Shown in pieces: positions 664 to 50,540 of a stretch of 50,808 nucleotides of DNA. Under the pieces are notes generated by a model. That model made no database searches. It was given only the letters and a program-made list of their open reading frames with translations, and was not told the DNA's origin. The stretch's first letter is position 1. Every line of letters starts with the position of its first letter. A program made the position numbers and the translations under genes. The DNA comes from a virus: the UHGV virus genome UHGV-1367122. One strand, written 5' to 3'.

Positions 664-792
664 CTTTATATGTATATAACAAAGCATCGTCAAAGAGCAG
701 AAAATTTTTTGGCTCTAAGGCATTCTCGCAAAGCGCCTAACAAGTCTTGAAATAAATAAAAGGCCTTTCAGGTATTCTCGCAATATGGCTAG

Positions 793-837
793 AAACAATG
801 TAAACAATGTAAACAATGTAAACAAAGTATTGTTTAC
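793..837. repeat. Three direct 12-bp repeats AACAATGTAAAC followed by an inverted copy ATTGTTTAC (iteron or operator-like)
   Basis: Seen directly; the same arrangement recurs at 29238-29275. Confidence 0.85.
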
Positions 838-891
838 GCGAGAATGGTATAAAAGTAATTGATTTTCAATAAGATAGGCCATTATGTAAAC

Positions 892-1030
892 AAAGAAACA
901 AAAAAATATAACACTGGCCTAAAATATGATTTGATAGTATTCTATAGAGCAATTATATTATATATAAGAAACTATCAAACCTATATTAGTATATATAGTG
1001 ACTTTGTTTTTTTTGTTTCTTTGTTTATTC
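892..1030. repeat. Inverted repeats GTAAACAAAGAAACAAAAAAA (892-915) and its reverse complement (1003-1030) flanking a ~90-bp AT-rich spacer
   Basis: Seen directly; a parallel structure is at 29311-29440; another palindrome TAAACAA-N12-TTGTTTA is at 1050-1076. Confidence 0.7.
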
Positions 1031-1205
1031 ATTAATAATCAATAGGTTATGAGTAAACAAAGCTCTCGCAATTGTTTATTGTGTTTATTTCTATTCTCGC
1101 AGTAAATAATTTTCATTCTCGCTGAAAAATTTACATTCCCGCAAAAATAAATTCTAATAATATACATTTAACATATAATTGATTGCCTGTTTGAATTATA
1201 TTTTG

Positions 1206-1232
1206 TACCTTTGCCCTATAAAAATTAAAACT
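1206..1232 (+). promoter_or_regulatory. Putative Bacteroidota-type promoter TACCTTTGCCCTATAAAAATTAAAAC (a -7-like TAnnTTTG) ahead of the structural arm
   Basis: TACCTTTG matches TAnnTTTG; a nearly identical box TATCTTTGCCTTAGAAAATAAAAC at 29527-29553 heads the replication module. Confidence 0.5.
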
Positions 1233-1240
1233 TTTCAGCC

Positions 1241-7813: not shown

Positions 7814-8761
7814 ATGTTAACAATTGAGATGCTTCGGCAGAGTTCAGCCCTTTCAGGCCTTACAGATACCCAGTTTACCGCTATTGCTGAAATGTCAAAA
7901 AATGACGAAAATGCGGTCATTGGAACAAAGATTGGCGCTCTGCACGGCCAGTATGATGCTGATATTTTTGGCATTACCGGTATCAAGAAAAAAGACGGCG
8001 AAAAAAGCTACGACTACGCAAAGCGTGTACTCGGCGAGTATAAAACAAAGGCTGAGTCTGTAAAAACAATTCAGACAGAGCTTAGCGCAGCTAAGGCCCA
8101 AGTTACAGAGCTTCAGTCTAAGCTTGAAAAAGGCGCAGGAGATGAAACTTTGCGTCAGCAGCTAAAAGATGCCAAGGCACAAGTTACTCAGCTTCAGGAG
8201 CAGCTTCAAACAAAAGAAACGGAGTTTAACTCTAATAAAACAGAGTTTGAAACTACTCTTAAGAATACGCATGTAGATTATGCTTTCCAAGCTGCTACAG
8301 CTGGTCTTAAGTTCAAAACCGGTATTACTGAGCCAATTCAGAAGACACTGCTTAATGCCGCTAAAGCAGAAGTGCTGGCAAAAGGAACTCCTGATTTTAT
8401 CGAAGACGGCCACGGTGGCAAAAAGCTTGTTATCCGCGGCGCCGACGGCAACATCCTTAACAATCCTAAGAATAACCTCAATCCGTATACAATGCAAGAG
8501 CTTGTTATGGAAACATCGCTGAAAGATGTAATTGAAGTTGGCCGCCAGCAAACTGGAGGCGGTACAGAAGGCTTTGGGTCAGGCTCTGGCGGTACGGGCG
8601 GAACACTCGACTTGTCTGGCATCAAGAACCAAGTAGAAGCTGACAAAGCTATTGAGGCCCATCTACTTGCAAATGGCCTAACCAGAGATTCTCAAGAGTT
8701 TGCAGACCAGTCTTTGCAATTGAGAACGGAAAACAATGTAGCAAGCTTGCCTATCAAATAA
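7814..8761 (+). CDS. Putative scaffolding protein (315 aa, coiled-coil, Gly-rich C-terminus)
   Basis: Heptad-rich QxxLxxAKAQVTELQ repeats; located immediately before the capsid gene. Confidence 0.5.
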   Translation: MLTIEMLRQSSALSGLTDTQFTAIAEMSKNDENAVIGTKIGALHGQYDADIFGITGIKKKDGEKSYDYAKRVLGEYKTKAESVKTIQTELSAAKAQVTELQSKLEKGAGDETLRQQLKDAKAQVTQLQEQLQTKETEFNSNKTEFETTLKNTHVDYAFQAATAGLKFKTGITEPIQKTLLNAAKAEVLAKGTPDFIEDGHGGKKLVIRGADGNILNNPKNNLNPYTMQELVMETSLKDVIEVGRQQTGGGTEGFGSGSGGTGGTLDLSGIKNQVEADKAIEAHLLANGLTRDSQEFADQSLQLRTENNVASLPIK

Positions 8762-8841
8762 ATAGAAAAGTGCTATGAAGGCGTAAAAGGGTAATGCACC
8801 ATAATAGCAATAATGTATAACAATTAAAAACTTAAAAAGTT

Positions 8842-9951
8842 ATGAGCTTAGTATTAACTCGTATCCAGAACATTCGTGCGAACTCGAATCTCGATAAGTT
8901 TGAGTATCGCCCCAGTAGATACGGTGCGCTGAATGCTTTCATGGTGCAGTCCGAAGACCCTACTGGCATCCTTACCGAGGAGCTGAAGCAAAAGGCAAGA
9001 ACTTCTATCGGTAATACTCTCGAAACTCCGGTAATTGACTATGACGCCGATATTACCATTGGTAATACCCGTACATTGACAATCAACGACAGCGAGAACA
9101 CCTCTAAGATGGTGCAGATTACGTTTGCCACGTACGCTTGGGGCTTCACAATTGCTCCCGCTATGTACATGAACAACGAAATTGGCATCCAGCGGGACTT
9201 TGAAACCAAGATGATGAAGTATATTTACAAGTTTGCTCAGAAGCTTGATGAGGTTGCTCTTGCTGCTTTGGCTGCCAATAAAACTAAAGTTCTGAAGAAT
9301 AAACTGCTGTATGACTTCTCGACCAACGCAGTTAACGCCAAGTGGTCGGAGCGCGAAAATGTATTTGGTGACCTCGAGGTTATGATGGGTGCAAATGACT
9401 TCTATGGTCAGCTGCATATTGTTGGCGACCCGGGCATTGAATCCATTATGCGTAAGCTTGAACAGCATGGGCTTTACAATGACGTAAACAAGCAGAATGA
9501 ATTCGGTAACAAGATTGTCCACTTGACAAACAATCTTGCCACTACTCCGGGTAAGTATGCCCAGGGCTATGCTGTAAATGCCGGTTCACTTGGCATGTTG
9601 ACTCGCTTTGAGCGTGACTGTCTGCTTGGCACTGTTTCTGGCGATGGCCATGAGTGGGGTATTGCTACTCTACCTCTGCTGAATATGCCTGTAGGTACGT
9701 ACTTCTATGATTCTGTCGGTGACTATCACACCATTGCTGGCGCCGCTACTGAAGACATGGTTCGTACCCGTAAAGAGCATTACGGTTTTGCCGTGGATGT
9801 AGCATTCCTTACTTCTTACAACAGTAACAGCGCTGCTCTGCCTAGTCCTATCCTTGCATTCAACATTTCTAGCGAAAATGCTGTTTATGCTAAGCCTGTT
9901 GTAGTGGTTAACTCAGAGGATAGCCCTGTTAATACCAAGGCTGTTGTTTAA
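8842..9951 (+). CDS. Putative major capsid protein (369 aa)
   Basis: Gene order, size, GC-rich codon usage (antisense ORF artefact 8854-9522), strong hairpin with T-run directly downstream. Confidence 0.55.
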   Translation: MSLVLTRIQNIRANSNLDKFEYRPSRYGALNAFMVQSEDPTGILTEELKQKARTSIGNTLETPVIDYDADITIGNTRTLTINDSENTSKMVQITFATYAWGFTIAPAMYMNNEIGIQRDFETKMMKYIYKFAQKLDEVALAALAANKTKVLKNKLLYDFSTNAVNAKWSERENVFGDLEVMMGANDFYGQLHIVGDPGIESIMRKLEQHGLYNDVNKQNEFGNKIVHLTNNLATTPGKYAQGYAVNAGSLGMLTRFERDCLLGTVSGDGHEWGIATLPLLNMPVGTYFYDSVGDYHTIAGAATEDMVRTRKEHYGFAVDVAFLTSYNSNSAALPSPILAFNISSENAVYAKPVVVVNSEDSPVNTKAVV

Positions 9952-9993: not shown

Positions 9994-10040
9994 CAGGGAG
10001 TGGCTGAGGCTAAATTAGTCTTAGTTACCTCCCTGTTTTT
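9994..10040 (+). terminator. Rho-independent terminator-like hairpin (CAGGGAG...CTCCCTG + TTTTT) after the capsid gene
   Basis: 7-bp GC stem, inner GAGG/CCTC pairing, T5 run at 10036-10040. Confidence 0.5.
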
Positions 10041-10060
10041 ATTATTAAAACTAAAAAACT

Positions 10061-11425
10061 ATGGTTAGAGCCAACGATATACAAGATAAATTGCTTCACC
10101 TAATAGGGTGGGCGCAGAATTATGATACGTCAGAGCTAAAAATATCTGATGCTTTAACCGTGAGCGAAAGTGGCCTATACTTTCAGCAAGTCCATACTTT
10201 GCTTACATTACAGAATCTGGCTTGTATCGCTCCGGACTTTAAGAATATGGCTTTTGAAGAGTACAATGCTGAAAAACCATATTCTAAAGGTAATGTAGTA
10301 AAGTATGATGAAAAGCTGTATAAAGCATTACAAAAGGCCTTAAACAAGCAGCCTGATATTGAATTTGAGTATTGGGTAGAAACCAATCCGTTTTCTGACT
10401 GGCTTGAAAGCAAAACAAAAGCGAGTATTCAAAAAGCTATTACAAGGTATTGCAATGAGAAAACCGCACAAGGAACACTTAAAACTTTGTGCGAAAATAG
10501 AACCCTATTTGATGGAGCTGGCCGTTTAGTAGATACGGTAAAAAACAGAAAAAACTTAGTAGGCTTTGAAATTGTACCTATGCGGGCAAAAGGTGTAACT
10601 ACAAAAATCAATAAGATAGGTTTACAATTTACAGAGCCTGGCGAATATATATTGTATCTTATGCACTCCAGCATGGATGCTCCAGTTAAGATAATAAAGC
10701 TTAATAAGGTACGTAAAAACAGCATTGAATGGTTTTCACTTAATGACGTATACATGCCTTATCAGAGTGAAGATAATGATGCCGGGGGAAGCTGGTATTT
10801 ATGCTATTTTCAATCTGAACTTCCAAAAGGAAGTCAGGCTATTAGAAAAGACAAAGACTGGTCTAAAGAGCCTTGTAGTTCATGCTCACGCAGAGAATAC
10901 CTGGCCTGGATGGCTTGGTCAAAGTATATAGAAGTGCATCCATTTTTTGTAAATGAGGAGCTGGTATGCTCTGATACTTCAAGTGGTGACTTTAATAGCG
11001 ATTTTAGCAGCGATTTTAACACCTCCTACGAAAAAGACTCTTTTCATTTATGGGATGTTGAAAATAATCAATATACCTATGATAACAACTACGGCTTAAA
11101 TCTTGAGTTAACTATAAGCTGTGATATTACAGATTTTATAATTGAGCAGCGAATGTTATTTCAGGATGTTATAGCGAAACAAGTAGCGGTAGATATGCTT
11201 CGTGAATTTGCCTATAACGCCAATGTTCGTACGAACAGGCATTCTATAAATGCGTCTAGACTTGATATATTGTACGAGGTTGACGGTGATTCTTCGTCTA
11301 TGAAAAAATCAGGTCTTAACTATCAGCTTGACATGGCATTTAAGGCAATTAAGCTTAGTACTGAGGGCCTAGATAGGGTCTGTCTTCCTTGCAGAAATAA
11401 TGGTATAAAATATAGAACAGTATAA
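10061..11425 (+). CDS. Hypothetical structural protein (454 aa), possible major tail or sheath-like protein
   Basis: Position between capsid and tape measure; contains DFNSDFSSDFN repeat; no motif confirmation. Confidence 0.35.
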   Translation: MVRANDIQDKLLHLIGWAQNYDTSELKISDALTVSESGLYFQQVHTLLTLQNLACIAPDFKNMAFEEYNAEKPYSKGNVVKYDEKLYKALQKALNKQPDIEFEYWVETNPFSDWLESKTKASIQKAITRYCNEKTAQGTLKTLCENRTLFDGAGRLVDTVKNRKNLVGFEIVPMRAKGVTTKINKIGLQFTEPGEYILYLMHSSMDAPVKIIKLNKVRKNSIEWFSLNDVYMPYQSEDNDAGGSWYLCYFQSELPKGSQAIRKDKDWSKEPCSSCSRREYLAWMAWSKYIEVHPFFVNEELVCSDTSSGDFNSDFSSDFNTSYEKDSFHLWDVENNQYTYDNNYGLNLELTISCDITDFIIEQRMLFQDVIAKQVAVDMLREFAYNANVRTNRHSINASRLDILYEVDGDSSSMKKSGLNYQLDMAFKAIKLSTEGLDRVCLPCRNNGIKYRTV

Positions 11426-13549: not shown

Positions 13550-16500
13550 ATGGCAGAGGAAGATAAGATAAAATATAGCGACATCATACAGCCGGATGAT
13601 TCGATTGAGAAGCTCGTAACACAAATGGGCGAGCTTAACAAGTCGTATGAAGAAATGGTAAAAGCCATTAGCTCCGGTGCAGAAAAAATTGTAAAGTCTA
13701 TTAAATCTGCAAGTGGCGCTACAACTGATGGCAGAAAAGCAATAGATGAAGCGGCTATAGCCGCCTCAAGGCTTGAAAAGGCACATACAGAGCTCAGTAT
13801 AGCGTTATCCGATACAGGTAAACAGATTGCGTGGCTTAAAGCGCAAACAGCAGATGCAAATAAGGCTACTGTAGAACAGCAGCGTTATTTGCAGCAAGCA
13901 GTAACTTCTTATGATAGACTTAAGTCAGACTTAAAAGAAGCCGTGTCATCGTATAAGGCCCTTACAGACGAAGAAAGGGCCAATAGCCAGACTGGACAAA
14001 AGCTTTTGAGCGATATTATCAGCCTCAAAGAGCAGATTAAGGCGCTCGATGCGGAGATGAAGCCTCATATTCATACTTTAACTGAGGTACAGAAAGCGGA
14101 GCAAAAATTAGCTTACTCGCAATCTGAAGAGGGACAGAAATTACTCGAGCTGAAAGCTAAAATTGCCGAAGTAAATAAGGCTACTGCAGAACAGCAGCGC
14201 TATCTCAAGCAGGCGTCTTCCTCGTATGATAGACTAAAATCTGATTTGGAGCGAGCCGTTGAACTCTATAAGTCCTTGACTGCGGCCGAGAGAGCGGATA
14301 GCGAAATGGGGCAGCAGGTCCTCGCCTATATTCTTAATTTGAAAAATCAGATTAAGGCGCTTGACGCGGAGATGAGCACTCATATGCAAACCCTAACAGA
14401 GGTGCAAAAAGCAGAGCAAAAATTAGCCTATTTGCAATCTGAAGAGGGGCAAAAGTTACTCGAGCTGAAAGCTAAAATTGCTGAAGTAACGGCGGCTAGA
14501 AGGCAACAGAAAAAGACTACTGACCCTCTAGCGCAAGCACAAGAGAAATTAACATACGCGAGGTCGGAGGAAAACCGGCAATTAAAGCTCTACTCTACTC
14601 TGATACAAGAGGCTAATCGTATCGCAAAATTACAAGTAATAATTAATAATTCCGCGGAGGGCTCCTATAATAGGCTTTCGGCGCAGTACGCTTTGAATAA
14701 AATAAAGCTTAATCAGATGTCTCAGGCCGAAAGAGAAGCTACGGATAGCGGTAAAAAGCTTGAGGAAGAGACCGCTGCAATATATCAGCGGATGATTAAG
14801 CTGCAAGAGGCTACTGGTAATTATACATTATCAGTAGGGCGTTATGAAAAAGCTTGGTTTGGCTTAGGGCTACAAGTATCGCAAGTGGTTCGAGAGCTTC
14901 CTGCAATTGCTGTTTCACTCAATACATTCCTCTTAGGTATATCGAACAATGTACCTATGGTTATTGACGAAATTAATAAGCTGCGTGCTCAGAATAAACT
15001 TTTGCAGAAAGAAGGCAAAGCTACTGTAAGTGTAACTAAGTCAATGGTAAAGGCCCTCTTCTCTTGGAATACTGCACTGGTAGTAATACTTACAGTGCTT
15101 TCAATGTTCGGTAGCCAAATTGTTGATTGGATAGGTAAGCTTTTTAAGGCCAAAAATGCCGCTATTTCTACAAGTGAGGCCCTTAGTAATATAGCTAAAG
15201 AGCTAGAAAGCACAAATGCGAGCTACGGTGAGAATATAGTAACGCTTAAACGGTTACAACAGGAGTGGAAAAACCTTAAAACTACAGCGGAGAAAAATCA
15301 ATGGATTAAAGATAATCAATCAGAATTTAATAAACTCGGCGTCGCTATAGATGGTGTAAATGACGCCGAGAATATATTCAACCAAAATACTACTAATGTT
15401 ATTAATGCTCTTAAGCTTAGAGCAAAAGCTGCGGCTGCTCAGAAATTAGCTGCAGAAAAATATGAAGAGGCTCTTGTAAATATAAATAAAGCAGAAGCAA
15501 AAGGGGTAGGTAAAGTAAATGAAAAAGGCGAATTACAGCTTACTCCAGAGGCGCAAGCAGGTCTTGCTAGAGAAAATCAATTTGCATCATTGGCGGGCCC
15601 GTCGTTTAGTCCTCAATATGGCGGCTCCTCAGGGGCGGCTTCAGGTGGCTATAAAACCACGGCGGTTGTTATGCAGGCGCGGGCATTAGTAGAAGAAGCA
15701 AATGCTGCGCAAAAAACTGCAGACGCCTATTTTGATTTAGCAGACGGCTACGAAGCGGCCGCCAAAGCGCAGCTTGAAGCTGCTGGAATTGATGAGCCGC
15801 GTAAGACAACCAAGGCTAGGACGCGTGAGCCTCGTGAGCCTCGTGACCTTACTAGCGTTATTAACCAGAATAGCATAAAGGCTCAAAAAGAATATGAAGA
15901 AAGCGTAACGGCGTTACAGAAAGACGAATTCGCTAAGAGGCGTAAAACTGCTGCTGACGAAGTACAGAATGAGAATAATAAACTCAGAGAGATGCTTCGT
16001 AAGAACGATGAGTATGTAAAAAATGTAGATGGCAAATATAAAAAACTTACTGAAGACCAAAAGAAGCAAATAGAGCAGCAGAATACCTGGATAAACGGCA
16101 CTATAGCGAATAATCTTAAAGCCTTAGCACTTCAATTAGAGCAAATACAGAGGGAGCAAGTTGCGAATTCTCTTAAACTCCAGCGCGAAACTCAGACAGG
16201 TGTTGTTAGTCCGGCCCCTATAGCAGAAAATGAGCCTAAGAATACAGAAACAACTGTTACTACAAATGTAACCGTTACTCGAGATGCTTCTCAGATTGAG
16301 GCCTCGCTAGTAGAAGAAAGAGAGCTCATGAGGCAAAACCTTGAGGCCGAGTATAAGTTGATACTGGACACTAATGCGAAGTTATTAGAGGCTGGTGACG
16401 AGCAGGCACGGTCTGAGGAGGAAATACTTATTGAGTTTAACAAGAAAAAGCTTCAACTCTACGCAGACTACGATAAGCAAATACTTGAGGCCAGAGAGCG

Positions 16501-28601: not shown

Positions 28602-29240
28602 ATGAAAAAGATAATCATAAAAATAGCTATAGCTGCTGTTGCTATACTAGCATTATTGTTAGCATCCCATAAAATACGTACACTAAAAGAGGATAATGAA
28701 AGACTTTTAAGCAACCAGGAAATTTTGCTAACGCAGAAACAAACCATAATGGCGGAAAGCCAAGCATATAAAGTGTCTGACAGCCTTAACGCCGCTAAAG
28801 TATCTGGGCTTCAGTTTACTCTTAATGAGTACAAAAAATATAGAGCCCAGGACTTTCAACTCATAGAACAACTCAAAGTTAAAAAGTCTGACTTGCAAAA
28901 AGTCATTGATTCGCAAATAGAAACTATAAATAGCCTTTCTGCTAAGCTCGATGATTCTATAAGAATTGATACCATAACTAATATAGCTGACACACTAAAA
29001 TGCTTTAATTACAAGTCAAAATGGACAGACGTTTCCGGGTGTATAGACCTAAAACGTGAAAACATAAATATACAAATCAAAAATAGAGAGTCGCTTAAGA
29101 TAGTAGAAACCGTAGTGTATAAGCGCTTTTTAGGGTTCTTATGGAAAACCAATAAAGTAAAAGGTAGGCAAGTAGATGTTATAAGCGAAAATCCTAATAC
29201 CACAATAACTAATTTAGATTATGTTAGCGTAAAGCAGTAA
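28602..29240 (+). CDS. Spanin-like lysis protein (N-terminal TM anchor + coiled coil, 212 aa)
   Basis: MKKIIIKIAIAAVAILALLLA signal-anchor followed by a coiled coil; position after the endolysin. Confidence 0.4.
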   Translation: MKKIIIKIAIAAVAILALLLASHKIRTLKEDNERLLSNQEILLTQKQTIMAESQAYKVSDSLNAAKVSGLQFTLNEYKKYRAQDFQLIEQLKVKKSDLQKVIDSQIETINSLSAKLDDSIRIDTITNIADTLKCFNYKSKWTDVSGCIDLKRENINIQIKNRESLKIVETVVYKRFLGFLWKTNKVKGRQVDVISENPNTTITNLDYVSVKQ

Positions 29241-29275
29241 ACAATGTAAACAATGTAAACAATTCATTGTTTACA
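29238..29275. repeat. Three direct GTAAACAAT(G) 12-bp repeats plus inverted copy TGTAAACAAT-TC-ATTGTTTACA
   Basis: Same architecture as 793-837; begins at the stop codon of the upstream gene. Confidence 0.85.
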
Positions 29276-29310
29276 CAAAAATGGTTGAAAATCAATCACT
29301 TATATAAGCC

Positions 29311-29440
29311 GTAAACAAAGAAACAATAAATCTATTAAATCTCTCTAATAACGCCTAATTACTAATTTTATGTTAATAAAATTTTAATAAATTAAATTAG
29401 GAATATAATAGCAATTGTTTCTATTGTTTCTTTGTTTACA
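29311..29440. repeat. Inverted repeats GTAAACAAAGAAACAATA (29311-29328) and reverse complement (29416-29440) flanking an AT-rich ~85-bp spacer
   Basis: Seen directly; parallels 892-1030. Confidence 0.7.
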
Positions 29441-29526
29441 ATTTGCTAAAAATTGCAAGCTGCGTTAAAAAAATAAAAAATCAGAAAAAATGTATAAAAA
29501 AATTTTTTTCTTTTATAAAAAGTTTT

Positions 29527-29553
29527 TATCTTTGCCTTAGAAAATAAAACAAT
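29527..29553 (+). promoter_or_regulatory. Putative promoter TATCTTTGCCTTAGAAAATAAAAC (TAnnTTTG -7 box) heading the replication module
   Basis: Near-identical to the box at 1206-1232. Confidence 0.5.
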
Positions 29554-29569
29554 AAAATTAACCAGATAT

Positions 29570-29983
29570 ATGGAACAGTTCAATATCAAAAATGTGATTG
29601 AGTACTACAAGCTGAATACAGAAGATTTAGCAAAGGTACTATTTCCTGCCATTAAATATCCAAAGCAGGCACTTGATAGAGTACTGAAAGGCGAAGGTAC
29701 TCTGGACATTACGCAGGTTGAAAAATTGGCCAACTATATTGGCGTGTTAGTAACTGATTTGTTCTCAGCAAATACCTGGAAAGGCTCTGCTGAAGATGGG
29801 TGCCTTACTTTACTGAAAGGCCAGTATAAAGCCAAGCTTAATTATAATGGCGTGTACTTATCTATATATAAAGATAATGTACTAATCGAGCAGAAAATAT
29901 CAAATATACCTAGCATGACAATTCAAGAGTTTATTAACTTTTTAGATAACTTAATTAAAAATTATGAAAATGGAAGCCATTAA
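29570..29983 (+). CDS. Hypothetical protein (137 aa), possible HTH regulator
   Basis: ORF track; weak helix-turn-helix-like segment; first gene after the promoter. Confidence 0.35.
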   Translation: MEQFNIKNVIEYYKLNTEDLAKVLFPAIKYPKQALDRVLKGEGTLDITQVEKLANYIGVLVTDLFSANTWKGSAEDGCLTLLKGQYKAKLNYNGVYLSIYKDNVLIEQKISNIPSMTIQEFINFLDNLIKNYENGSH

Positions 29984-30410
29984 AATTTCCGTAGAGGTTA
30001 GCGTAAACCTGTCAGAAAATACGCAGAACTTCATCAAGTCGCTGTTTGGCGGCACAATAGCGGCAGTAGCAACGCAGACCCAAAAATCCACTCCCGAGGC
30101 ACCTGCCGCATCCGCTAAACCGGCTTCTCAGCCAGTCACCGCGGTCACTCCTGACGCTGAAGCACCTGCCGCTGAAGCACCTGCCGCTGAAGCACCTGCC
30201 GCTGAAGCACCTGCCGCTGAAGCACCTGCTGCTGAAGCACCTGCCGCTGCTTCTAAAAGCATAGAAGACGTGCGCAAGATGCTTGTCCAAAAAGTAGACG
30301 CACATCGTGACGCCATTAAGCAGAAACTCAATGAGTTGGGTGCACCAAGCGTAACAAAACTCGACCCGTCTAAATATGACGATATGTATAATTTCCTTAA
30401 TTCACTTTAG
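29964..30410 (+). CDS. Protein with a (EAPAA)x7 tandem-repeat linker (148 aa)
   Basis: 15-bp DNA repeat GCTGAAGCACCTGCC x7 at 30166-30255. Confidence 0.5.
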   Translation: MKMEAIKISVEVSVNLSENTQNFIKSLFGGTIAAVATQTQKSTPEAPAASAKPASQPVTAVTPDAEAPAAEAPAAEAPAAEAPAAEAPAAEAPAAASKSIEDVRKMLVQKVDAHRDAIKQKLNELGAPSVTKLDPSKYDDMYNFLNSL

Positions 30411-32403: not shown

Positions 32404-32484
32404 AGTATAGTAGTTTAATGGTAAAACCACAGAGCGCCATTGGTTTGTGTGCCTGTTATGCGGGTTCGAGTCCCGCCTATACTC
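32404..32484 (+). tRNA. tRNA-like element (81 nt) with canonical acceptor, D and T arms but no regular anticodon stem-loop
   Basis: Acceptor AGTATAG/CTATACT, D-arm GTTT-AATGGTA-AAAC, T-arm GCGGG-TTCGAGT-CCCGC all perfect; the 31-nt central region fits no 5-bp stem/7-nt loop in any register. Confidence 0.45.
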
Positions 32485-35257: not shown

Positions 35258-37657
35258 ATGCAAGTAGGTAAATTAGAATACGATATAAATCTCAATATAG
35301 CTATTGGGCTGAGCGCCGCAAGTAAAGTTTGGAAAAATACCAAAATTGCTTGGAGCGCCTTGGTTCAAAAGCTGTCCGCGCCAGTTGTAACTACAGAAAC
35401 GTATAGGCAATTTATACAGGCTACAAAAGATGAACAAAGTAAAATAAAAGATGTCGGCGGATTTGTTGGTGGCTTTCTCACAAATGGGCGCCGCGATAAG
35501 TCTAATGTTCTATACCGTCAGCTTATCGCATTAGATATAGACTTCTCACATGAAAATTTTTGGTGGGATTTTACAATGCTTTTTGACTGCGCGGCCGTAA
35601 TACACTCAACGCACAAGTCATGTGCAGAAAAGCCTCGCCATAGACTACTAATTCCGCTTGATAGAGAGGTGTCTCAAGAAGAGTATCAGGCTATTGCACG
35701 AAAAGTTGCGGGAGACTTAAACATTGATTTATTTGACCCTTCGACTTTTGATGTAAATAGACTTATGTTTTGGCCCTCTATATCGTCGGATGCTGAGTAC
35801 TACTTTGAATATCAAGATGGTCCATTTCTTGCAGCCGATTATATACTGGGACTATATACAGACTGGCATGATACAAGTGAATGGCCAACAGCTTCTGATA
35901 GCAGTAATGTTATAATGCAAGCTATAAAGAAGCAAGAAGACCCGGCTAATAAAAAAGGCATAGTTGGCCTATTTTGCAGAGCGTATACAATTCAAGAAGC
36001 AATATCTGCGTTTCTTTCAGACGTGTATGAGCCTGCGGGAGAGAATAGATATACTTATATAAATGGTTCGACTGCCGCTGGGCTTATTGTATATGATGAT
36101 AAATTTGCGTATTCTCATCATGGAACAGACCCGGCGGGTCAAAGGCTGTGTAACGCTTTTGACTTAGTCCGTATACATAAATATAGCAGCCTAGATACAG
36201 GAAAAGAAAAGAGCGAGCAGGATAAAAAGAGTTTTAAGGCAATGGAAGAGTTTGCCGCAAAAGACTCGCAGATAAAAAAGCGTATCGCAGAAGAAAAATT
36301 AGCTGAAGCAAAGTTCGAGTTCGCTGAAGAAGTAGAGCTACCAGAAGAAGAGCAAGATAATTCTTGGACGTCAGAACTTACGGTAAATACAAAAGGAGAG
36401 TACGAAAATTCTGCGAATAACTTAAATATCATATTCCAGTTTGACCATTTTCTTAAAAATGCTTTCAAGTTAAATACCTTTGATAATAAAAGATATGTTA
36501 CAAAAACTCTTCCATGGCGCAAAATCGATGATGTGGAGCCTATTCGTGATGTTGATTATTCTGGTGTACGTAATTACATTGAGTGTATTTATGGCATTGT
36601 GTCTAGTCAAAAAGTTGACGATGCACTTGCGCTTGAAATTGAAAAGAAGAAATTTCACCCAATAGTTGAATACATAAAATCCTTACAATGGGATGGTGTA
36701 CAACGCGTAAATACATTGCTTATAGACTACTTTGGCGCAGAAGATAACGCCTATACGCGAGCGGCTATAAGAAAAATGCTATGCGCAGCCGTGACAAGAG
36801 TATTCCATCCGGGTACTAAGTTTGATACAGCTCTTATATTAGTAGGTCCTCAAGCTACGTATAAAAGTACATTCGTAAAAAAACTCGGTAAAAACTGGTT
36901 TTCAGATACTTTTACAACAGTACAGGGTAAAGAATCTTTTGAACAAATACAAGGGGCGTGGCTTATTGAAATAGCTGAGCTTTCAGGCCTTAAAAAAGCA
37001 GAAGTTGAAACAATTAAGCATTACATATCAAAATGTGAAGATTCATTTAGGCCTGCATATGGTAGAACTATAGAAACATATAAAAGACAATGCGTGTTCT
37101 TTGGTACTACCAATTCAAAAGACTTTTTGCGTGACCCAACAGGAAATAGACGCTTTTTGCCGGTAGATGTGAGGCCGGAATACGTCACCAAAAATGTGGT
37201 GGAGGAGCTTACAGATGAAGACATAGACCAAATATGGGCAGAAGCCTATGAAATGTATAAACAGGGCGAGCCCTTATATATGACCGGCGAAGAGGATATG
37301 ATTGCTAAGCTTGAGCAATATAAGCACTCAGAACAAGATGAGCGTAAAGGTATTATTGAAGAGTATCTAAATGCAAAATATCCTGACAACTGGGCTAGCA
37401 TGGACCTTTATGATAGGCGTAGATGGCTAGAAGACCCGTTATCCCAGGTAGGAACAGCCCAAAGGGAATTCGTGTGTGTAGCTGAAATATGGTGTGAATG
37501 CCTCGGCAAAGAGAAAAACGATATGTCAAGGTATAACACCAGAGACATAAATGACATATTACGTTCGTTGCCTGAGTGGGAAGCCTCCACTTCAACAAAG
37601 AACTTTTCAATATACGGTAAACAGAAGTATTACAAACGTAAAGACAGCTTATTATGA
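35258..37657 (+). CDS. Bifunctional primase (AEP/prim-pol-like N-terminus) and P-loop helicase (VirE/D5-like C-terminus), 799 aa
   Basis: LIALDIDFSH (DxD) in the N-terminal part; Walker A GPQATYKST and downstream acidic motif in the C-terminal part. Confidence 0.65.
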   Translation: MQVGKLEYDINLNIAIGLSAASKVWKNTKIAWSALVQKLSAPVVTTETYRQFIQATKDEQSKIKDVGGFVGGFLTNGRRDKSNVLYRQLIALDIDFSHENFWWDFTMLFDCAAVIHSTHKSCAEKPRHRLLIPLDREVSQEEYQAIARKVAGDLNIDLFDPSTFDVNRLMFWPSISSDAEYYFEYQDGPFLAADYILGLYTDWHDTSEWPTASDSSNVIMQAIKKQEDPANKKGIVGLFCRAYTIQEAISAFLSDVYEPAGENRYTYINGSTAAGLIVYDDKFAYSHHGTDPAGQRLCNAFDLVRIHKYSSLDTGKEKSEQDKKSFKAMEEFAAKDSQIKKRIAEEKLAEAKFEFAEEVELPEEEQDNSWTSELTVNTKGEYENSANNLNIIFQFDHFLKNAFKLNTFDNKRYVTKTLPWRKIDDVEPIRDVDYSGVRNYIECIYGIVSSQKVDDALALEIEKKKFHPIVEYIKSLQWDGVQRVNTLLIDYFGAEDNAYTRAAIRKMLCAAVTRVFHPGTKFDTALILVGPQATYKSTFVKKLGKNWFSDTFTTVQGKESFEQIQGAWLIEIAELSGLKKAEVETIKHYISKCEDSFRPAYGRTIETYKRQCVFFGTTNSKDFLRDPTGNRRFLPVDVRPEYVTKNVVEELTDEDIDQIWAEAYEMYKQGEPLYMTGEEDMIAKLEQYKHSEQDERKGIIEEYLNAKYPDNWASMDLYDRRRWLEDPLSQVGTAQREFVCVAEIWCECLGKEKNDMSRYNTRDINDILRSLPEWEASTSTKNFSIYGKQKYYKRKDSLL

Positions 37658-43414: not shown

Positions 43415-44261
43415 AGAAAAAGGCGGCCACTTAGAAGACAGTGAGCTATATGATTTTATAGAAGAGATACAAAGCGAAGACGTAAAAGGAGAAAGCACCG
43501 AAAAAACAAGCGGCGAGGCGCAAGATATTATTTCAGAGCTGCCTGAAAACGCTGAAATTGAGGCCTATTACGGTAATGACGCCTGGAGAATGCCGCCTAT
43601 ATATGCGGGAAACCAAGGTCGTATTACTGTACTATATGGGCCTGAAGTTAAACAAAAAGCGGCTGAAGGGCGCAGAGAAGCCGCTAAAGAAAAAAGTCGG
43701 CGCCTAAAAAATGAGAGACTGCGTATTCAACGAGAAGCCTTTAGTCAGGAGCTAATAAGTTTAAGCGACAAAATAGAAACGCCGCATATAAAATTGCTTA
43801 TAGCCGCGCTGACGAAAGAGCATACTCGCATGATAAATAGGTACTCCAGTTTTATAAATAACCGGCTTACCTCGTTACTAAATCCTTTTATACCACCCCG
43901 CTTAAAAAATTGTAGGCTACTTTATCCGGATTCCATACGCATGAGCCCTGGCTTTATGTATAAAGCGAGTAAAGAATACGGGAACGGGTTAACCTTCTGG
44001 GCGACGCCTTTAATACCCTATTACTTTGCGCAAAATACAGAGCAGGCCATACTACTAAAAAACAAGCCTACATTTTTATACTCAATTGATAAGGCTGTAG
44101 GCTTTTACCATTGGCACTTAAAACAAAGGCAAGAAAAAGAGCTTAGATACGCCTCTGCTGTTATACAAAAAGGCGTCTCTTCTTATTATGATTTGCTTAA
44201 GTTTAATCCTTTTTGGTTTGAAGTACTGTATAACGAATTAAAAAATAAACAAGATGACTAA
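43401..44261 (+). CDS. Hypothetical protein (286 aa), translationally coupled to the downstream response regulator
   Basis: The stop overlaps the start of 44254-44952. Confidence 0.45.
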   Translation: MESIEEKGGHLEDSELYDFIEEIQSEDVKGESTEKTSGEAQDIISELPENAEIEAYYGNDAWRMPPIYAGNQGRITVLYGPEVKQKAAEGRREAAKEKSRRLKNERLRIQREAFSQELISLSDKIETPHIKLLIAALTKEHTRMINRYSSFINNRLTSLLNPFIPPRLKNCRLLYPDSIRMSPGFMYKASKEYGNGLTFWATPLIPYYFAQNTEQAILLKNKPTFLYSIDKAVGFYHWHLKQRQEKELRYASAVIQKGVSSYYDLLKFNPFWFEVLYNELKNKQDD

Positions 44262-44952
44262 TCAAGTTGCGCTACCACGCATACTAGTCTATCAAGACGA
44301 AGACTGTAGCGTATTATTAGAGTATTTAACTTTTTGTGGATTCGGAGTAATAGAGGCCACAGAAGAAAATGTGCTGGCTAAAATACAGGATGGCCGGTAT
44401 GATATGTGTATTATAAGCCCACTTAAGGCTTGCGCAAAAGATAATTTTAAGCTTTTACGGGCGCAAAAAGAGGCTGATAAAAACAAGCCCATAATTTTTT
44501 TATCCGGCTTATCCGCGTATACTTGTAAGATAGAAGCCTTTGAGCTAGGCGTCGATGACTATGTTATCCGGCCCTTTAATTTTGAGGAGCTCGTTTATAG
44601 AATAAAGGCTTTATTAAAGAGGTGCGGTATTAAAAGCCGAAAAATAGAGGACACTTATAAAATAGGTAACTATACCTTTAATACGCAGTTCAAAAGCTTG
44701 GAGTTAAAAGGAACAGAAATAAAGCTAACTATCATAGAAAACAAAGTACTTGCCCTCTTATGTGCGTACCAAAACGAGATACTTACAAAAGAAATGTTAT
44801 TGCGCGATATATGGGGAGACGATAATTTTTTTATTAAGCGTAGCTTAGACGTTCACGTATGTAGGCTGCGAAATCATTTGAAACAGGACAGTAATATAAA
44901 AATAGAAACGGTTAGGGGTTTAGGCTATTCCCTTACGGTATCTAATAACTAA
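44254..44952 (+). CDS. OmpR/PhoB-family response regulator (receiver domain + winged-helix DNA-binding domain), 232 aa
   Basis: REC-like ILVYQDED...RYDMCIISP...PIIFLSG...GVDDYVIRPF (conserved Lys replaced by Arg); C-terminal LTIIENKVLALLCAYQNEILTKEMLLRDIWG...RSLDVHVCRLRNHL...IETVRGLGYSL matches the Trans_reg_C domain. Confidence 0.75.
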   Translation: MTNQVALPRILVYQDEDCSVLLEYLTFCGFGVIEATEENVLAKIQDGRYDMCIISPLKACAKDNFKLLRAQKEADKNKPIIFLSGLSAYTCKIEAFELGVDDYVIRPFNFEELVYRIKALLKRCGIKSRKIEDTYKIGNYTFNTQFKSLELKGTEIKLTIIENKVLALLCAYQNEILTKEMLLRDIWGDDNFFIKRSLDVHVCRLRNHLKQDSNIKIETVRGLGYSLTVSNN

Positions 44953-45050: not shown

Positions 45051-46091
45051 TTAGATAAGCGGGTCCGCTTCATTTGCAGCGTCCGCCGACTGCGTGTCCG
45101 CTTCATTTGCGGCGTCTGCCGACTGAGCGGCCTGAGCCGCCAAATAAGCCTCTAGCTTAGCCTTTGCCTCGGCAAGCACCTTGCGCTTTGCCTCTAGTAC
45201 TTGCTCCGCTTTTTGCAGCCGTTCCTCAGCTTTTTTTACAGCCTCTTCGCAGAAAAGCACGCGCTCCTGTGGATTAAAAGATTCTGAGTTGCCTTTGTTT
45301 TCAAGGCGCGCACGATACTTCTTATTGCGTGCCAGACCCTCTTCGTCAAAGTCTTCGGCAATTTGCAAGTCGGCACTTGTTACTTTGTATACAAATTTTA
45401 CTGCCTCGGGGTCCTCGGCCGTGGGTGCAGGCGTTGCTATTTTGTAGAGCAAGCTCTTGGCTCGTTTGTCAATAACTATTGCTACAATACGGCCGTCACG
45501 GTAGTCTACTTTTTTGCCTACGTTTTCAACGGCTTTGCTAAGCTCCTCTTCTACTCTTTCGGGAGTCCATTCTACACGGTCTTTTGCTTTGCGCTTTTTT
45601 CTTTCAAGCGTTACGGTGGTATCCAGTATCTTCAGCAGCTTGCTGTCATGCACCTTAACAATACGGCGGCTATCGTTGGTCTTAATAGCGTAAAGCACTT
45701 TGTTGCTGCGCTTGTCCTCTACGACGCCGGCTATATAGCCGTCAACCCACTCAGCGCTATTAAAAGGCACAACCTGACACATGTGGTAAAGGTTGCCTTT
45801 TAACTCGGCAGCAATAGCGTGCCGTTCCTCGTCAGTCAGCTTGGCTGCTTTATTTTGCGCGCGACCGCTATAAAGCGGGTTAAGCCCATCATTATTCTCG
45901 GCGGCCTCAATTGCGGCCTCTTCCTCGGGAGTAAGAGGCTCTTCGTCTACAGCCTCAGCAGCATTAGCCATTTCCATTTGTTCGCGCTTGGCAAGCTCGG
46001 CCTCAATAGCCGCTTTGTCCTCTTCGTTTGCCGTTGCCAGGAGGGCATTTAATTTCTTCGTCGCCAGCTTCTTAAAATTTTTGGTTGCCAT
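45051..46091 (-). CDS. Hypothetical acidic, Ala/Glu-rich protein (346 aa) with C-terminal tandem QSADAANEAD repeat
   Basis: ORF track; 30-bp tandem duplication at about 45060-45125. Confidence 0.5.
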   Translation of the reverse strand: MATKNFKKLATKKLNALLATANEEDKAAIEAELAKREQMEMANAAEAVDEEPLTPEEEAAIEAAENNDGLNPLYSGRAQNKAAKLTDEERHAIAAELKGNLYHMCQVVPFNSAEWVDGYIAGVVEDKRSNKVLYAIKTNDSRRIVKVHDSKLLKILDTTVTLERKKRKAKDRVEWTPERVEEELSKAVENVGKKVDYRDGRIVAIVIDKRAKSLLYKIATPAPTAEDPEAVKFVYKVTSADLQIAEDFDEEGLARNKKYRARLENKGNSESFNPQERVLFCEEAVKKAEERLQKAEQVLEAKRKVLAEAKAKLEAYLAAQAAQSADAANEADTQSADAANEADPLI

Positions 46092-46226
46092 AGTTTTGAA
46101 AATTAAAAGAGTTAAACGTTATTTTTGCTTTTTGCTCTATTTTCATGTACAAAGATACTAACTTTTTTTGAGCCGCAAAAGTTTTTATATAAATTATTAC
46201 GCTAAAATTATTTAACACCTCTGGTG

Positions 46227-46385
46227 TTATTCGTCCGCGTTAACCACGCCCAAGACAACTGCGAGAGCTATAAGGGCTAAGGCGCTAATAACAAGCCAGA
46301 AAGGCGAAAATGCCTCAATAAAAGGCACACCTAAAAACACGACAAGCATGCTGACACCGTTTAATAAATTTTTATACCGTTTCAT
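46227..46385 (-). CDS. Small hydrophobic protein (~52 aa, two TM segments), below the ORF-track size cut-off
   Basis: Manual translation MKRYKNLLNGVSMLVVFLGVPFIEAFSPFWLVISALALIALAVVLGVVNADE. Confidence 0.3.
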   Translation of the reverse strand: MKRYKNLLNGVSMLVVFLGVPFIEAFSPFWLVISALALIALAVVLGVVNADE

Positions 46386-46390
46386 TTTAC

Positions 46391-46894
46391 TTAATTATTA
46401 ATGGTTAGTACTACATGGGCTTCGCCATACACGCGAACCTCGCCACACACCTCAGAGTTACCGTACACGTTAACTCCACCGCACACGTGAGCCCTGCCAT
46501 GTACATGGGCCTCGCCGTGCACACGGGCCGCGCCATATACATAGGCCTCATCGTACACATGGGCCTCGCCGTATACCCAAGCCTCGTCGTCTATATGGGC
46601 TTCACCATACACGTGCGCCCACCCACATACGATGGCCTCGCCGTATATTTGAGCCTGGCCGTATACTTGAGCCTGGGCGTACACGATGGCATCATCATAC
46701 ACATACGCGCTGCCGTACACGCAGGCCTCGCCGTACACCCAGGCCATATCATGCTGCGATAAGTTTTCTTCGCTTTCGATAAAGCCACCTTTATCGCCTT
46801 TTTTAACTCGGCCGAAATCCCGTAAAGCCTCTATCCTGTAGAGGGTGTGGCCGTCAATAGTAATTGTCTCCTGAGTGAGCTTGTACTTTTTCAT
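46391..46894 (-). CDS. Hexapeptide-repeat (xVYGEA) protein, paralogue A: conserved ~48-aa N-terminal domain + ~18 repeats
   Basis: N-terminus MKKYKLTQETITIDGHTLYRIEALRDFGRVKKGDKGGFIESEENLS; 18-bp DNA periodicity. Confidence 0.7.
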   Translation of the reverse strand: MKKYKLTQETITIDGHTLYRIEALRDFGRVKKGDKGGFIESEENLSQHDMAWVYGEACVYGSAYVYDDAIVYAQAQVYGQAQIYGEAIVCGWAHVYGEAHIDDEAWVYGEAHVYDEAYVYGAARVHGEAHVHGRAHVCGGVNVYGNSEVCGEVRVYGEAHVVLTINN

Positions 46895-46915
46895 TTTAGT
46901 AAGTTTTAAGGGTTG

Positions 46916-47695
46916 CTATTTTACGTTAGGCACCTTGTCGTATGCGCGGGCCTGCCCACACACACAGGCCTGGCCGCTCACGATAGCTCCGCCATGCACG
47001 CGAGCCTCGTCGTACACGCGAGCCTCGTCGTACACGCGAGCCATGTCGTACACCAAAGCTTCGCCATACACCAAAGCCCTACCGTACACCCAAGCCCTGT
47101 CGTACACACGGGCCTGACCATACACACAGGCCTGGCCGCGCACTACAGCCTTGCTGTACACATAGGCATGGCCGTATACGCTAGCCGTGTCGTGCACACA
47201 GGCCCAGCCGTACACGTTAGCCTCGCCGTACACGCGGGCACAGCCATACACCCAGGCCCCACCGTACACACGGGCCTGACCGTACACGCGAGCCTCTTCG
47301 TACACATAGGCTTCATCATACACACTGGCCTCACCATACACCCAAGCCCCGCCATACACGACGGCCCGGCCATACACAATAGCTTTGTCGCACACGATGG
47401 CCTCGCCATACACGCGAGCCCGGTCACACACAGCGGCCTCACTATGTATGTGGGCGTCGCCGCACACACAGGCCTGACCGCGTACGATAGCCTGACCGTA
47501 CACACGGGCCTTACCGTACACACGGGCCTTACCGTATACCCAGGCCGTGCCATCGTGCGATAGGTTTTCTTCGCTTTCGATAAAGCCGCCTTTGTCGCCT
47601 TTTATAACGTCGCCGAAATCCCGTAAAGCCTCTATCCTGTAGAGGGTGTGGCCGCCAATAGTAATTGATTCCTGAGTGAGTTTGTACTTTTTCAT
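46916..47695 (-). CDS. Hexapeptide-repeat (xVYGEA) protein, paralogue B: same N-terminal domain + ~35 repeats
   Basis: Nearly identical N-terminus; conserved upstream context TAAAACTTACGAAAATG. Confidence 0.7.
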   Translation of the reverse strand: MKKYKLTQESITIGGHTLYRIEALRDFGDVIKGDKGGFIESEENLSHDGTAWVYGKARVYGKARVYGQAIVRGQACVCGDAHIHSEAAVCDRARVYGEAIVCDKAIVYGRAVVYGGAWVYGEASVYDEAYVYEEARVYGQARVYGGAWVYGCARVYGEANVYGWACVHDTASVYGHAYVYSKAVVRGQACVYGQARVYDRAWVYGRALVYGEALVYDMARVYDEARVYDEARVHGGAIVSGQACVCGQARAYDKVPNVK

Positions 47696-47779
47696 TTTCG
47701 TAAGTTTTAGTATTGTATATTTTGCATCGTGCCGCCGTAGGTGTCGCTCCTAAGCCGTTTCTTTCCGCGGCGGCTAGAG

Positions 47780-47968
47780 TTACGCGTTTTCCTGAGGAGT
47801 GCCGTCCCATTCCGCTTGTTGCTCTAGCACAATATACCGTGCTTTCTTCACCCGGCACATAAGTGCAGCATAGCACTCCGCGTCCTTTAGGTTTTCAAAG
47901 CGCTCCATAATAGCGGGACTAAAAGTAGAGCTGTAGGCTTTAGCTACGTAAAAAATTTTTGTTTCCAT
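47780..47968 (-). CDS. Small hypothetical protein (62 aa)
   Basis: ORF track. Confidence 0.35.
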   Translation of the reverse strand: METKIFYVAKAYSSTFSPAIMERFENLKDAECYAALMCRVKKARYIVLEQQAEWDGTPQENA

Positions 47969-48007
47969 TTTACTATAATTTAAGTTATTAATACATTTAG
48001 AGTTTTA

Positions 48008-48253
48008 TCAAAGGTACGTTGTAAATCGGTTTGCCATGCGCAGCGCGGTGTCTTTAGATAGTAAATCAAAGCAACCCGTCCACTCCTCTTTGCGGATTAG
48101 TTTGCCGTCAACAAACTCCCACATATCTATGGTATCGCGGATAAATAAATAGCTGTGTTTACTAATACGCACCTTTACGCCGTTATCGCCTGTCACAACA
48201 AAACAAGGCCGCGGCTTGCCGTCAACATAAAATTTTGTTTTTCTCACTTCCAT
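48008..48253 (-). CDS. Small hypothetical protein (81 aa)
   Basis: ORF track. Confidence 0.4.
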   Translation of the reverse strand: MEVRKTKFYVDGKPRPCFVVTGDNGVKVRISKHSYLFIRDTIDMWEFVDGKLIRKEEWTGCFDLLSKDTALRMANRFTTYL

Positions 48254-48272
48254 TTTACTATAAATTTTAGAA

Positions 48273-48506
48273 TTATTTCACGCCCATTTTTCGCGCGTAC
48301 TCATCTATTTGCTCGCGCGTAAGCCACTCCGGCTTTACGGGCAACAAATCATAAAGCTCACGCATTTTATCGATTTGTTTTTGCTCGTCGCGGGCCCAAA
48401 GGCAGTGCACCGCAGTTGGGTGCCCGTGTTGGGCAAGGTAGTACTCGCAGTCGCAGCGAAGGCGGTCCAATAGCATGTAGTTAAATTTATTTTGGTCCAT
48501 AATCAT
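48273..48506 (-). CDS. Small hypothetical protein (77 aa)
   Basis: ORF track. Confidence 0.4.
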   Translation of the reverse strand: MIMDQNKFNYMLLDRLRCDCEYYLAQHGHPTAVHCLWARDEQKQIDKMRELYDLLPVKPEWLTREQIDEYARKMGVK

Positions 48507-48750: not shown

Positions 48751-48762
48751 AATGCTTTACTA

Positions 48763-48836
48763 TTTATTATTATACCTCAAAGGTAGCGCTTTATTTTTAA
48801 CTACGGAAATTTTTTATACTAACGAAGTCTAATTTT
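48763..48836 (-). promoter_or_regulatory. Copy 2 of the conserved ~75-bp leftward promoter-like element
   Basis: Nearly identical to 50541-50615 and 471-544. Confidence 0.55.
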
Positions 48837-48879
48837 TAGGCTATTAAGTAACTATTTCCCAGCGTTTCACTTTATTAAT

Positions 48880-49293: not shown

Positions 49294-49336
49294 TTTAGTA
49301 AGTTTTAAGGATTAGTATTATAGCTGGGTCTACTAC

Positions 49337-50520: not shown

Positions 50521-50540
50521 TTTGCTTAAGGATTATTATT

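Follow-up and report, generated by a model that had tools for sequence, protein, structure and literature searches.

The window, by which we mean the whole 50,808-nucleotide stretch of viral DNA analysed here (UHGV virus genome UHGV-1367122), contains two noncoding regions built from the same short repeats (iterons), and these twin iteron units are the subject of this study. The window looks like a complete, circularly closed phage genome of ~50.8 kb, with a 25-bp tandem repeat, GCTAAGAGCCTATGGGGCTTATGCG, found in at least 5 copies across both of its ends (50759-50808 and 1-103) and followed by a hairpin, GCTAAGAGCC..GGCTCTTAGC. Genes are carried on the + strand from 1241 to 44952, with the large terminase at 2676. 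Region 1 (404-1240) is a divergent intergenic region in front of the packaging and structural operon, and region 2 (29241-29569) separates a DUF6549 gene from the gene that opens the replication operon. The replication module after region 2 encodes a DUF2800 nuclease, an Enc34-type single-stranded DNA-binding protein, ThyA, PolA, a VapE primase-helicase, a VRR-NUC-like nuclease, and a SNF2 helicase. On the circle, the two units are ~28 kb and 22 kb apart.

In both regions the repeat is a 9-bp tandem, GTAAACAAT, with the core hexamer AAACAA. Its copies follow one order, namely an outer array of 3-4 direct iterons and one inverted iteron, a palindrome (TTGAWWWTCAA), two inner iterons, an AT-rich core of 87-102 bp, and three inverted iterons, so that each unit is roughly dyad-symmetric. 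The elements of the two regions, together with the -7 boxes that lie downstream of them, are as follows.

774-782 (+) and 837-845 (inverse): brackets of the region 1 array, ATTCTCGCA
791-837, unstranded: region 1 outer array, four direct 9-bp iterons (AGAAACAAT, GTAAACAAT twice, and GTAAACAAA) and one inverted iteron (829-837)
857-871, unstranded: region 1 palindrome, AATTGATTTTCAATA, with the core TTGATTTTCAA; kept in all lineages examined
886-901, + strand: region 1 inner-left iterons, GTAAACAA AGAAACAA, at 8-bp spacing
902-1003, unstranded: region 1 AT-rich core, GC 0.22; 919-998 is the second least stable 80-bp window
1004-1028, - strand: region 1 inner-right iterons, three inverted copies with TTGTTT at 1004, 1013, and 1021; 20-nt perfect inverted repeat with 887-906
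1053-1088, unstranded: extra iteron group of region 1, GTAAACAAAG (+) and ATTGTTTATTGTGTTTAT, the latter being two inverted copies, one of them degenerate
1206-1213, + strand: -7 box of Bacteroidota type, TACCTTTG, placed 28 nt ahead of the start codon (ATG at 1241); heads the packaging and structural operon
29237-29274, unstranded: region 2 outer array, three direct GTAAACAAT and one inverted iteron (29266-29274); the first iteron overlaps the DUF6549 stop codon
29284-29296, unstranded: region 2 palindrome, GTTGAAAATCAAT, in the orientation opposite to the region 1 copy
29311-29326, + strand: region 2 inner-left iterons, GTAAACAAAGAAACAA
29327-29413, unstranded: region 2 AT-rich core, GC 0.16; 29330-29409 is the third least stable 80-bp window
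29414-29439, - strand: region 2 inner-right iterons, three inverted copies with TTGTTT at 29416, 29425, and 29433; 18-nt perfect inverted repeat with 29311-29328
29527-29534, + strand: -7 box of Bacteroidota type, TATCTTTG, upstream of the first replication-operon gene (ATG at 29570)

An earlier note on this DNA, made from the letters alone, had described these two noncoding regions as sharing an architecture, and we found all of its elements to be present, far beyond chance. The window has 8 copies of the 9-bp repeat where 0.67 would be expected, and 7/8 fall within the two regions. GTAAACAAAGAAACAA forms an inverted pair in each of them (886-901 with 1013-1028, and 29311-29326 with 29424-29439), for an expectation of 0.08. 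Moreover, 21 of the 68 genomic copies of AAACAA/TTGTTT are packed into ~540 bp. The two clusters reach 10 and 9 hexamers per 250 bp, compared with 3 in the next best genomic cluster and a maximum of 5 across 300 simulated genomes. The AAACAA count is 9 in region 2 and 12 in region 1 (13 with the degenerate copy). Writing > for AAACAA and < for TTGTTT, the spacing in region 1 reads > 9 > 9 > 9 > 10 < .. > 8 > 108 < 9 < 8 <, plus the extra group, and in region 2 > 9 > 9 > 10 < 46 > 8 > 94 < 9 < 8 <; the two signatures are nearly identical. The inner arms are perfect inverted repeats of 18-20 nt, and the AT-rich spacers between them differ in sequence between the two copies while the iterons match. 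These AT cores (GC 0.16-0.22) are the second and third least stable 80-bp windows of the 50.8-kb genome. TTGAWWWTCAA stands in both regions (859 and 29285), between the outer array and the inner-left pair, and has 3 matches against 0.31 expected. Folded as single-stranded DNA, the inner-arm units of both regions can form long hairpins (z -5.8 and -6.7), a result that follows from the iterons being inverted and does not discriminate between models.

Several details of the earlier description needed revision. Its 12-bp direct repeat is a genuine repeat of the wrong length, AACAATGTAAAC being an overlapping reading of the 9-bp tandem, and the proposed recognition sequence, TGTAAACAA, is slightly off, since the core is AAACAA within the 9-bp unit. 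Three direct copies followed by an inverted one were correctly given for region 2; region 1 has four direct copies, the first being AGAAACAAT at 791-799. The pair of inverted elements ~100 bp apart and the AT-rich spacer between them hold, with a right arm of three iterons rather than two. The palindrome, the region 1 group at 1053-1088, and the ATTCTCGCA brackets had been missed.

The bracket sequence belongs to a second motif family, with copies at 722, 774, 837 (- strand), 1093, 1115, and 1135, at 28495/28517/28584, at 40547, and at 42964/43040. ATTCTCGCA forms direct repeats ~21 bp apart ahead of the structural-operon promoter and inverted pairs in two further intergenic regions, and one copy stands 11 nt before a -7 box at 40567. 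In relatives, CGAGAAT precedes the replication operon's -7 box by 6 nt, and two contigs (L007 and L103) have 24-bp tandem units. This motif may be a promoter-associated regulator site.

We found relatives of the window in IMG/VR, with at least 143 confirmed by the exonuclease and at least 186 by the large terminase; many of the listed contigs are ~50 kb. The nearest GenBank phages are the Bacteroides fragilis phages BF486P2 and kin, with a primase-helicase identity of 68%. Against GenBank phages, blastn with region 1 gave no match, and megablast with the first 12 kb gave a 650-bp coding match only. In what follows, lineage A is the window and its close relatives, with AAACAA iterons; lineage B comprises contigs with GGGTAAC/GTTCACC iterons, whose large terminase, exonuclease, and VapE protein are ~74%, ~62%, and ~62% identical to those of the window; and lineage C is BF486P2.

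The conservation in related phages that the earlier note had put forward as a check was borne out. The layout of region 2 is identical in 73/73 relatives whose locus covers it, and region 1 has at least 7 hexamers in 36/54 covered loci. Across 64 distinct region 2 sequences, mean pairwise identity was 0.97 for the iteron cores and 0.97 for the -7 box, compared with 0.88-0.90 in the remaining noncoding columns and 0.74-0.81 in adjacent coding DNA, which makes the iteron cores the most conserved noncoding columns. In some relatives the gene upstream of region 2 has been replaced, and the base at which the unit starts is unchanged. Region 1 is more variable, with its left half kept in most relatives and its right half and spacer varying. 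In three relatives (L020-L022), the left and right inner arms both shift from 8-bp to 9-bp spacing.

The twin design extends to lineages with different iterons. In lineage B, the GGGTAAC/GTTCACC iteron has 9-bp spacing and is accompanied by the same palindrome and CACTTATATAA block and by an AT-rich core as in the window. In six contigs, a 16-mer specific to this lineage is found at a region-1-like as well as at a region-2-like position, and the region 2 unit there runs opposite to both region 1 and the genes that flank it. The matching pair of intergenic regions in BF486P2 are alike (210 bp, 67% identity, E 2e-20) and unlike those of the window. Judged from these sequences, the twin design is ancestral and the two copies evolve in concert, which argues for a self-contained unit whose function would be independent of a fixed geometry with the neighbouring promoter. 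The twin copies change iterons together across lineages, and this argues for one phage-encoded, sequence-specific reader. The dedicated phage DNA-binding protein postulated by the earlier note is thus well supported, both by this joint change and by the higher identity of the iteron cores.

The same comparisons bear on whether the second copy could be a neutral duplication without a function of its own. The greater variability of region 1, which is eroded in some relatives, would fit such a history. Three lineages nonetheless retain the twin design, although their unit sequences can no longer be recognised as alike, and in them both copies share lineage-specific iterons; in addition, the spacers have come to differ while the iterons match; we regard a neutral duplication as scarcely credible.

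We also asked whether the units might serve another cis function, as a centromere-like partition site of an episomal prophage, as sites of recombination or inversion between the two copies, or as packaging sites. Short repeats in mixed orientation resemble the centromeres of ribbon-helix-helix proteins of the ParR/omega type, the terminase genes follow closely on region 1, and the lineage B copies are mutually inverted. Against this, a scan of ~40 open reading frames (ORFs), a set from which the structural genes were left out, turned up no ParA/ParB, integrase, or recombinase. A second packaging site ahead of the replication genes makes little sense, and a melt-prone AT-rich core between convergent iterons is needless for partition, recombination, or packaging. 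In 185,579 species-representative bacterial genomes, a 19-mer taken from the unit had no matches beyond those due to chance, and the complete unit was never found, which speaks against a resident prophage or plasmid state. The chance that the units have a function of this kind is very slim.

The palindrome behaves differently from the iterons. TTGAWWWTCAA and an adjacent (C/T)ACTTATATAA block are kept in lineages with differing iterons (at ~13010 and ~13170 in L373 of lineage B, and at ~2845, ~3028, and ~3095 in L409, a contig with a different genome organisation). Such conservation in sequence suggests a conserved phage or host factor as its binder. The region 2 copy, AATCAATCACTTA, presumably fits the E. 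coli IHF consensus, which we take to be WATCAANNNNTTR.

The Bacteroidota sigma-A -7 element has the consensus TAnnTTTG, and the near-identical promoter boxes that the earlier note had included in its shared architecture are both present and of this type. They are separate elements downstream of the iteron unit and no part of it. The boxes are kept in relatives (column identity 0.97). The nearest iteron end lies 88 bp upstream of the box in region 2 and 118 bp upstream in region 1, the sites as a whole end about 90-180 bp or more upstream, and unit-to-box distances differ between the two regions and among relatives. Reading the sequence by eye, we saw in neither region a clear -33 TTTG element where one would be expected, and a sigma-70 promoter and terminator scan of 1-1400 gave matches at chance level. 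An Rfam scan of the whole window had no match in region 1 or region 2, so a known structured RNA at these sites is unsupported.

Three phage proteins were considered as readers of the iterons, and one further iteron lies beside one of their genes.

35258-37657, + strand: proposed reader of the iterons, a primase-helicase of 799 aa that has a VapE-like superfamily 3 (SF3) ATPase at residues 473-690 and a C-terminal winged helix at ~700-799
44254-44952, + strand: rival reader, an atypical response regulator of the OmpR/PhoB family with a receiver domain and a winged helix-turn-helix
44954-44962: lone iteron, ATTGTTTAC, just after the stop codon of the OmpR-type gene
29570-29983, + strand: minor rival reader, a 137-aa protein with a weak XRE-type helix-turn-helix (HTH), encoded by the gene that follows region 2; it may also bind the palindrome

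The primase-helicase has a Pfam VapE-like_dom match (3.4e-82) and a PHROGs primase match in its N-terminal half. A phmmer search against the PDB returned a single match, 7pds (SaPI1 Rep1; E 6.4e-71), aligning residues 368-728 with 15-381. We modelled the last 120 aa with AlphaFold2 and obtained a beta-alpha-alpha-hairpin arrangement, winged-helix-like, with a predicted local distance difference test (pLDDT) score of 84.6. In a Foldseek search of the PDB with this model, six 7pds chains were the sole significant matches (E 3e-5 to 3e-4, TM 0.63-0.67), all others having E > 0.1, and no structure from phage P4 was among the significant ones. The window, L410, and L409, all of which have TAAACAA iterons, share a putative recognition helix, SRY(N/K)TR(D/E)IN(D/E)ILR, and a wing, STKNF; L409 does so with a C-terminal domain that is 66% identical and a genome that is organised differently. 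Lineages B and C differ at the putative recognition-helix and wing positions. The iterons are most likely read by the phage's own primase-helicase. In L410 this protein is called as two ORFs (8448-9848 and 10001-10531), and the large terminase of some relatives has a ~1.1 kb insertion or an HNH-like ORF ahead of it (15588-15842 and 16998-18311 in L373; ~2044-2600 in L132); these interruptions are probably insertions of the homing-endonuclease or intron type.

Systems in which a replication protein reads short repeats are known from satellites and phages. The satellite phage P4 has an octamer iteron, TGTTCACC, at two cis regions (ori and crr), which differ in architecture and are both needed in cis, and this octamer is read by the C-terminal winged helix of the alpha protein, a fusion of primase and SF3 helicase. 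The lineage B iteron, GGTTCACC, is strikingly similar to what we take to be the P4 octamer. Classical iteron-plasmid origins of the RepA/pi type have iterons of 17-22 bp, a WH1-WH2 Rep, and usually DnaA boxes; we rejected this class, since the window's units are 8-9 bp and no Rep_3-type initiator appeared in the Pfam and PHROGs scans.

A closer parallel comes from Staphylococcus aureus pathogenicity islands (SaPIs), for which PMC9371898 is our second-hand source of the origin definition. There, SaPI Reps are described as self-loading initiator-helicases whose C-terminal winged helix reads penta- or hexanucleotide iterons, and the origins as having 6-12 iterons around an AT-rich centre, with at least two on each side in opposite directions (PMC9371898 and its refs 28 and 29), and as lying directly downstream of rep. 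PriRep5, in which primase and helicase are fused into a 790-aa protein, no longer binds the origin once its C-terminal domain has been removed (PMC9371898). Measured against this description, the window's units agree on every point save where they lie relative to the rep gene. The window's iterons are alike in having a hexanucleotide core and in numbering within or near 6-12 (9 in one region and 12-13 in the other), and both regions have an AT core with two direct and then three inverted iterons. Likewise, the window's SF3 helicase is fused to a primase as in PriRep5, in the same domain order and with a predicted C-terminal winged helix. There are also differences. The host genome is a Bacteroidota tailed phage, whereas SaPIs are Gram-positive satellites; the origin candidate does not adjoin the rep gene, as SaPI origins do, and is found in two copies per genome; and the window's unit has an extra outer array and a conserved palindrome and lies upstream of an operon promoter.

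[quoted passage not shown] The replication-gene region holds one of these origins, a late-gene intergenic segment between transcription signals holds the other, and oriR has been proposed to stall forks and trigger a switch to concatemeric replication (PMC6316719). The window resembles SPP1 in its two copies of repeats and an AT-rich element with near-identical spacing. It differs in that SPP1 uses the origin-binding protein gp38 with a DnaB-type helicase and a loader, places oriL inside gene 38, and has repeats that are not convergent around an AT core; no DnaB or loader was found among the window ORFs scanned.

Our analysis inclines us, with slightly better than even confidence, to read each region as a replication-origin-type cis element, the pair being either twin Rep-type origins or an origin with an auxiliary copy as in SPP1 oriL/oriR. 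The unit pair is real, conserved, and predicted to be functional, and fits best among the Rep-type iteron origins, as a new member of a class already known. The earlier note had offered two alternatives, operators of a regulator or origins with iterons and an unwinding element. The second is the better fit, given the SaPI-like design, the helicase resembling Rep1 and PriRep5, and the lack of a conserved distance or orientation relative to the promoter. Operators are a minority possibility, since the sites lie far upstream of the -7 boxes and the OmpR-type candidate is absent from lineages with the twin design.

From the architecture, its statistics, conservation, and co-variation, and from the fact that the helicase, its C-terminal domain included, is homologous to Rep1, we infer how such an origin could work. 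The C-terminal winged helix of the 799-aa VapE primase-helicase would recognise the AAACAA iterons, and two helicase assemblies would form on the inner iteron sets, which point in opposite directions. The AT-rich core of 87-102 bp that separates these assemblies would then melt, and the fused primase domain would start synthesis. The outer array and the palindrome would probably contribute cooperative binding and bending, with the palindrome perhaps bound by a conserved phage or host factor. Either both units fire, or region 2, which is invariant and stands at the head of the replication operon, would be the main origin and region 1, which is more plastic, an auxiliary site. As an auxiliary site, region 1 could be a second origin, or it could act as a barrier to forks and a switch of mode, the role that has been proposed for SPP1 oriR. 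Initiator binding may also affect transcription of both operons, since each unit lies just upstream of a Bacteroidota-type promoter.

A number of observations weigh against an origin read by the primase-helicase. The sequence match to Rep1 ends before the C-terminal domain, whose likeness to Rep1 is structural only (20-24% identity) and comes from a predicted model. The units lie 5.8 kb upstream (region 2) and ~14 kb downstream on the circle (region 1) of the helicase gene. With nearly all genes on one strand, GC skew follows gene orientation monotonically and does not help to place an origin. In BF486P2, k-mer enrichment gave no clear iteron, CATTTTG being weakly enriched (8/27 copies in the two regions). 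The co-variation amounts to three iteron specificities only, which follow phylogeny, and the reader is not uniquely assignable because the XRE-type HTH protein diverges between the same lineages as well (30-45% identity). Finally, the OmpR-type regulator is carried by 78/79 lineage-A relatives, and its family binds direct repeats with half-sites, TGTTTA for PhoP and GTAAA for CpxR, that resemble the iteron.

These last points bring in the view that the units are operator or enhancer arrays on which an OmpR/PhoB-type regulator binds head to tail, as a coordinated switch of the two rightward operons. The candidate is a full-length member of its family (Trans_reg_C, 3.3e-20), with a profile match to PrrA (1ys6, 9.5e-29) over residues 1-228; its best PHROG match is phrog_731, a family without an assigned function. 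Its gene stands at the end of the replication operon, with the lone iteron directly after the stop codon. The recognition-helix region KRSLDV..C.LR is invariant even as overall identity falls to 48%, in parallel with the invariant iteron core. A G or S at the phospho-acceptor position makes kinase-independent action probable, and BF486P2 has neither the regulator gene nor AAACAA iterons. Typical boxes of the family are PhoP TGTTTA-N5-TGTTTA and CpxR GTAAA-N5-GTAAA, with a period of ~10-11 bp and a position at or just upstream of the -35. The window shares with them tandem direct repeats and a TAAACA/GTAAA-like half-site, in a phage that encodes a family member. It departs from them in its period of 8-10 bp and in arrays that converge on a melt-prone AT core, no feature of OmpR-type operators, far upstream of promoters to which the spacing is not conserved. 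Moreover, in the stretches retrieved, the lineage B contigs L373-L376 cover the syntenic region and keep the twin units without an OmpR-like ORF (hidden Markov model search, E<=1), and L409 has TAAACAAT iterons and no regulator gene at the syntenic place. We therefore rejected the regulator as a universal, parsimonious reader, as four viral-contig scans found it missing from lineages B and C and from L409, and consider operator arrays of this type an unlikely explanation of the units.

The XRE-type protein raises a similar question. As a Cro/CI-like autoregulator it could bind the palindrome GTAAACAA-N4-TTGTTTAC that closes each outer array, TTGAWWWTCAA, or both, and control both operons. Lineages A, B, and C all keep its gene directly after region 2, the array ends are 20-bp palindromes, and the protein itself diverges between lineages with different iterons. 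Most iterons, in turn, are direct repeats or distant inverted sets rather than dimer-sized palindromes, and the sites are far from the -7 box. TTGAWWWTCAA stays constant while the protein falls to ~30% identity, and the assignment itself comes from a weak HTH_26 match whose 18.5 bits are below the curated Pfam threshold of 22. Control by this protein is very unlikely in our estimation.

A bolder version of the origin reading would treat the units as a coupled replication-transcription switch. Here the initiator-helicase and, in lineage A, a phosphorylation-independent OmpR-type regulator would compete for the AAACAA sites, timing the passage from early theta replication (region 2) to fork arrest and concatemers (region 1) and gating the replication and virion promoters. 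We think this decidedly improbable; if true, it would mean that a phage has recruited a response-regulator fold to read origin iterons.

Replication origins of gut Bacteroidota phages are essentially unmapped, and a full-text literature search for Bacteroides phage together with iterons returned no match. If the origin reading is right, it would give precise origin coordinates for a phage family abundant in human-gut metagenomes, and a ready pair of cis element and initiator for Bacteroides phage or plasmid vectors. The AAACAA, GGGTAAC/GTTCACC, and BF486P2 types would form a natural specificity series for origin reading by self-loading SF3 helicases. The SaPI Rep-type origin design would then reach from Gram-positive satellites to Bacteroidota tailed phages, and the SPP1-like two-origin layout would have a second example.

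Elsewhere in the window, a leftward module on the - strand (45051-50520 and 86-403) has a GC content of 0.50-0.54, compared with 0.41 for the genome, and encodes three paralogous beta-solenoid proteins (YdcK repeats, weak bactofilin matches) and an LPD11-domain protein. A promoter-like block is repeated beside it, at ~460-600 and ~50540-50615, and lineage B has another module in its place. Contigs of many relatives stop near the 25-bp repeat GCTAAGAGCCTATGGGGCTTATGCG, where either the assembly breaks or the genome truly ends. A GC-rich hairpin at 637-657 (AGGCCCC...GGGGCC, then TATATA) recurs in the corresponding position in each of lineages A, B, and C and scores as terminator-like on the - strand. 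The only Rfam match in the window is a tRNA gene at 32404-32484 (46.4 bits), between the genes for the single-stranded DNA-binding protein and thymidylate synthase. Directly after the HTH gene, a 148-aa ORF (29964-30410) has a low-complexity (EAPAA)n repeat, and its C-terminal 50 aa are kept in all lineages (54-59% identity).

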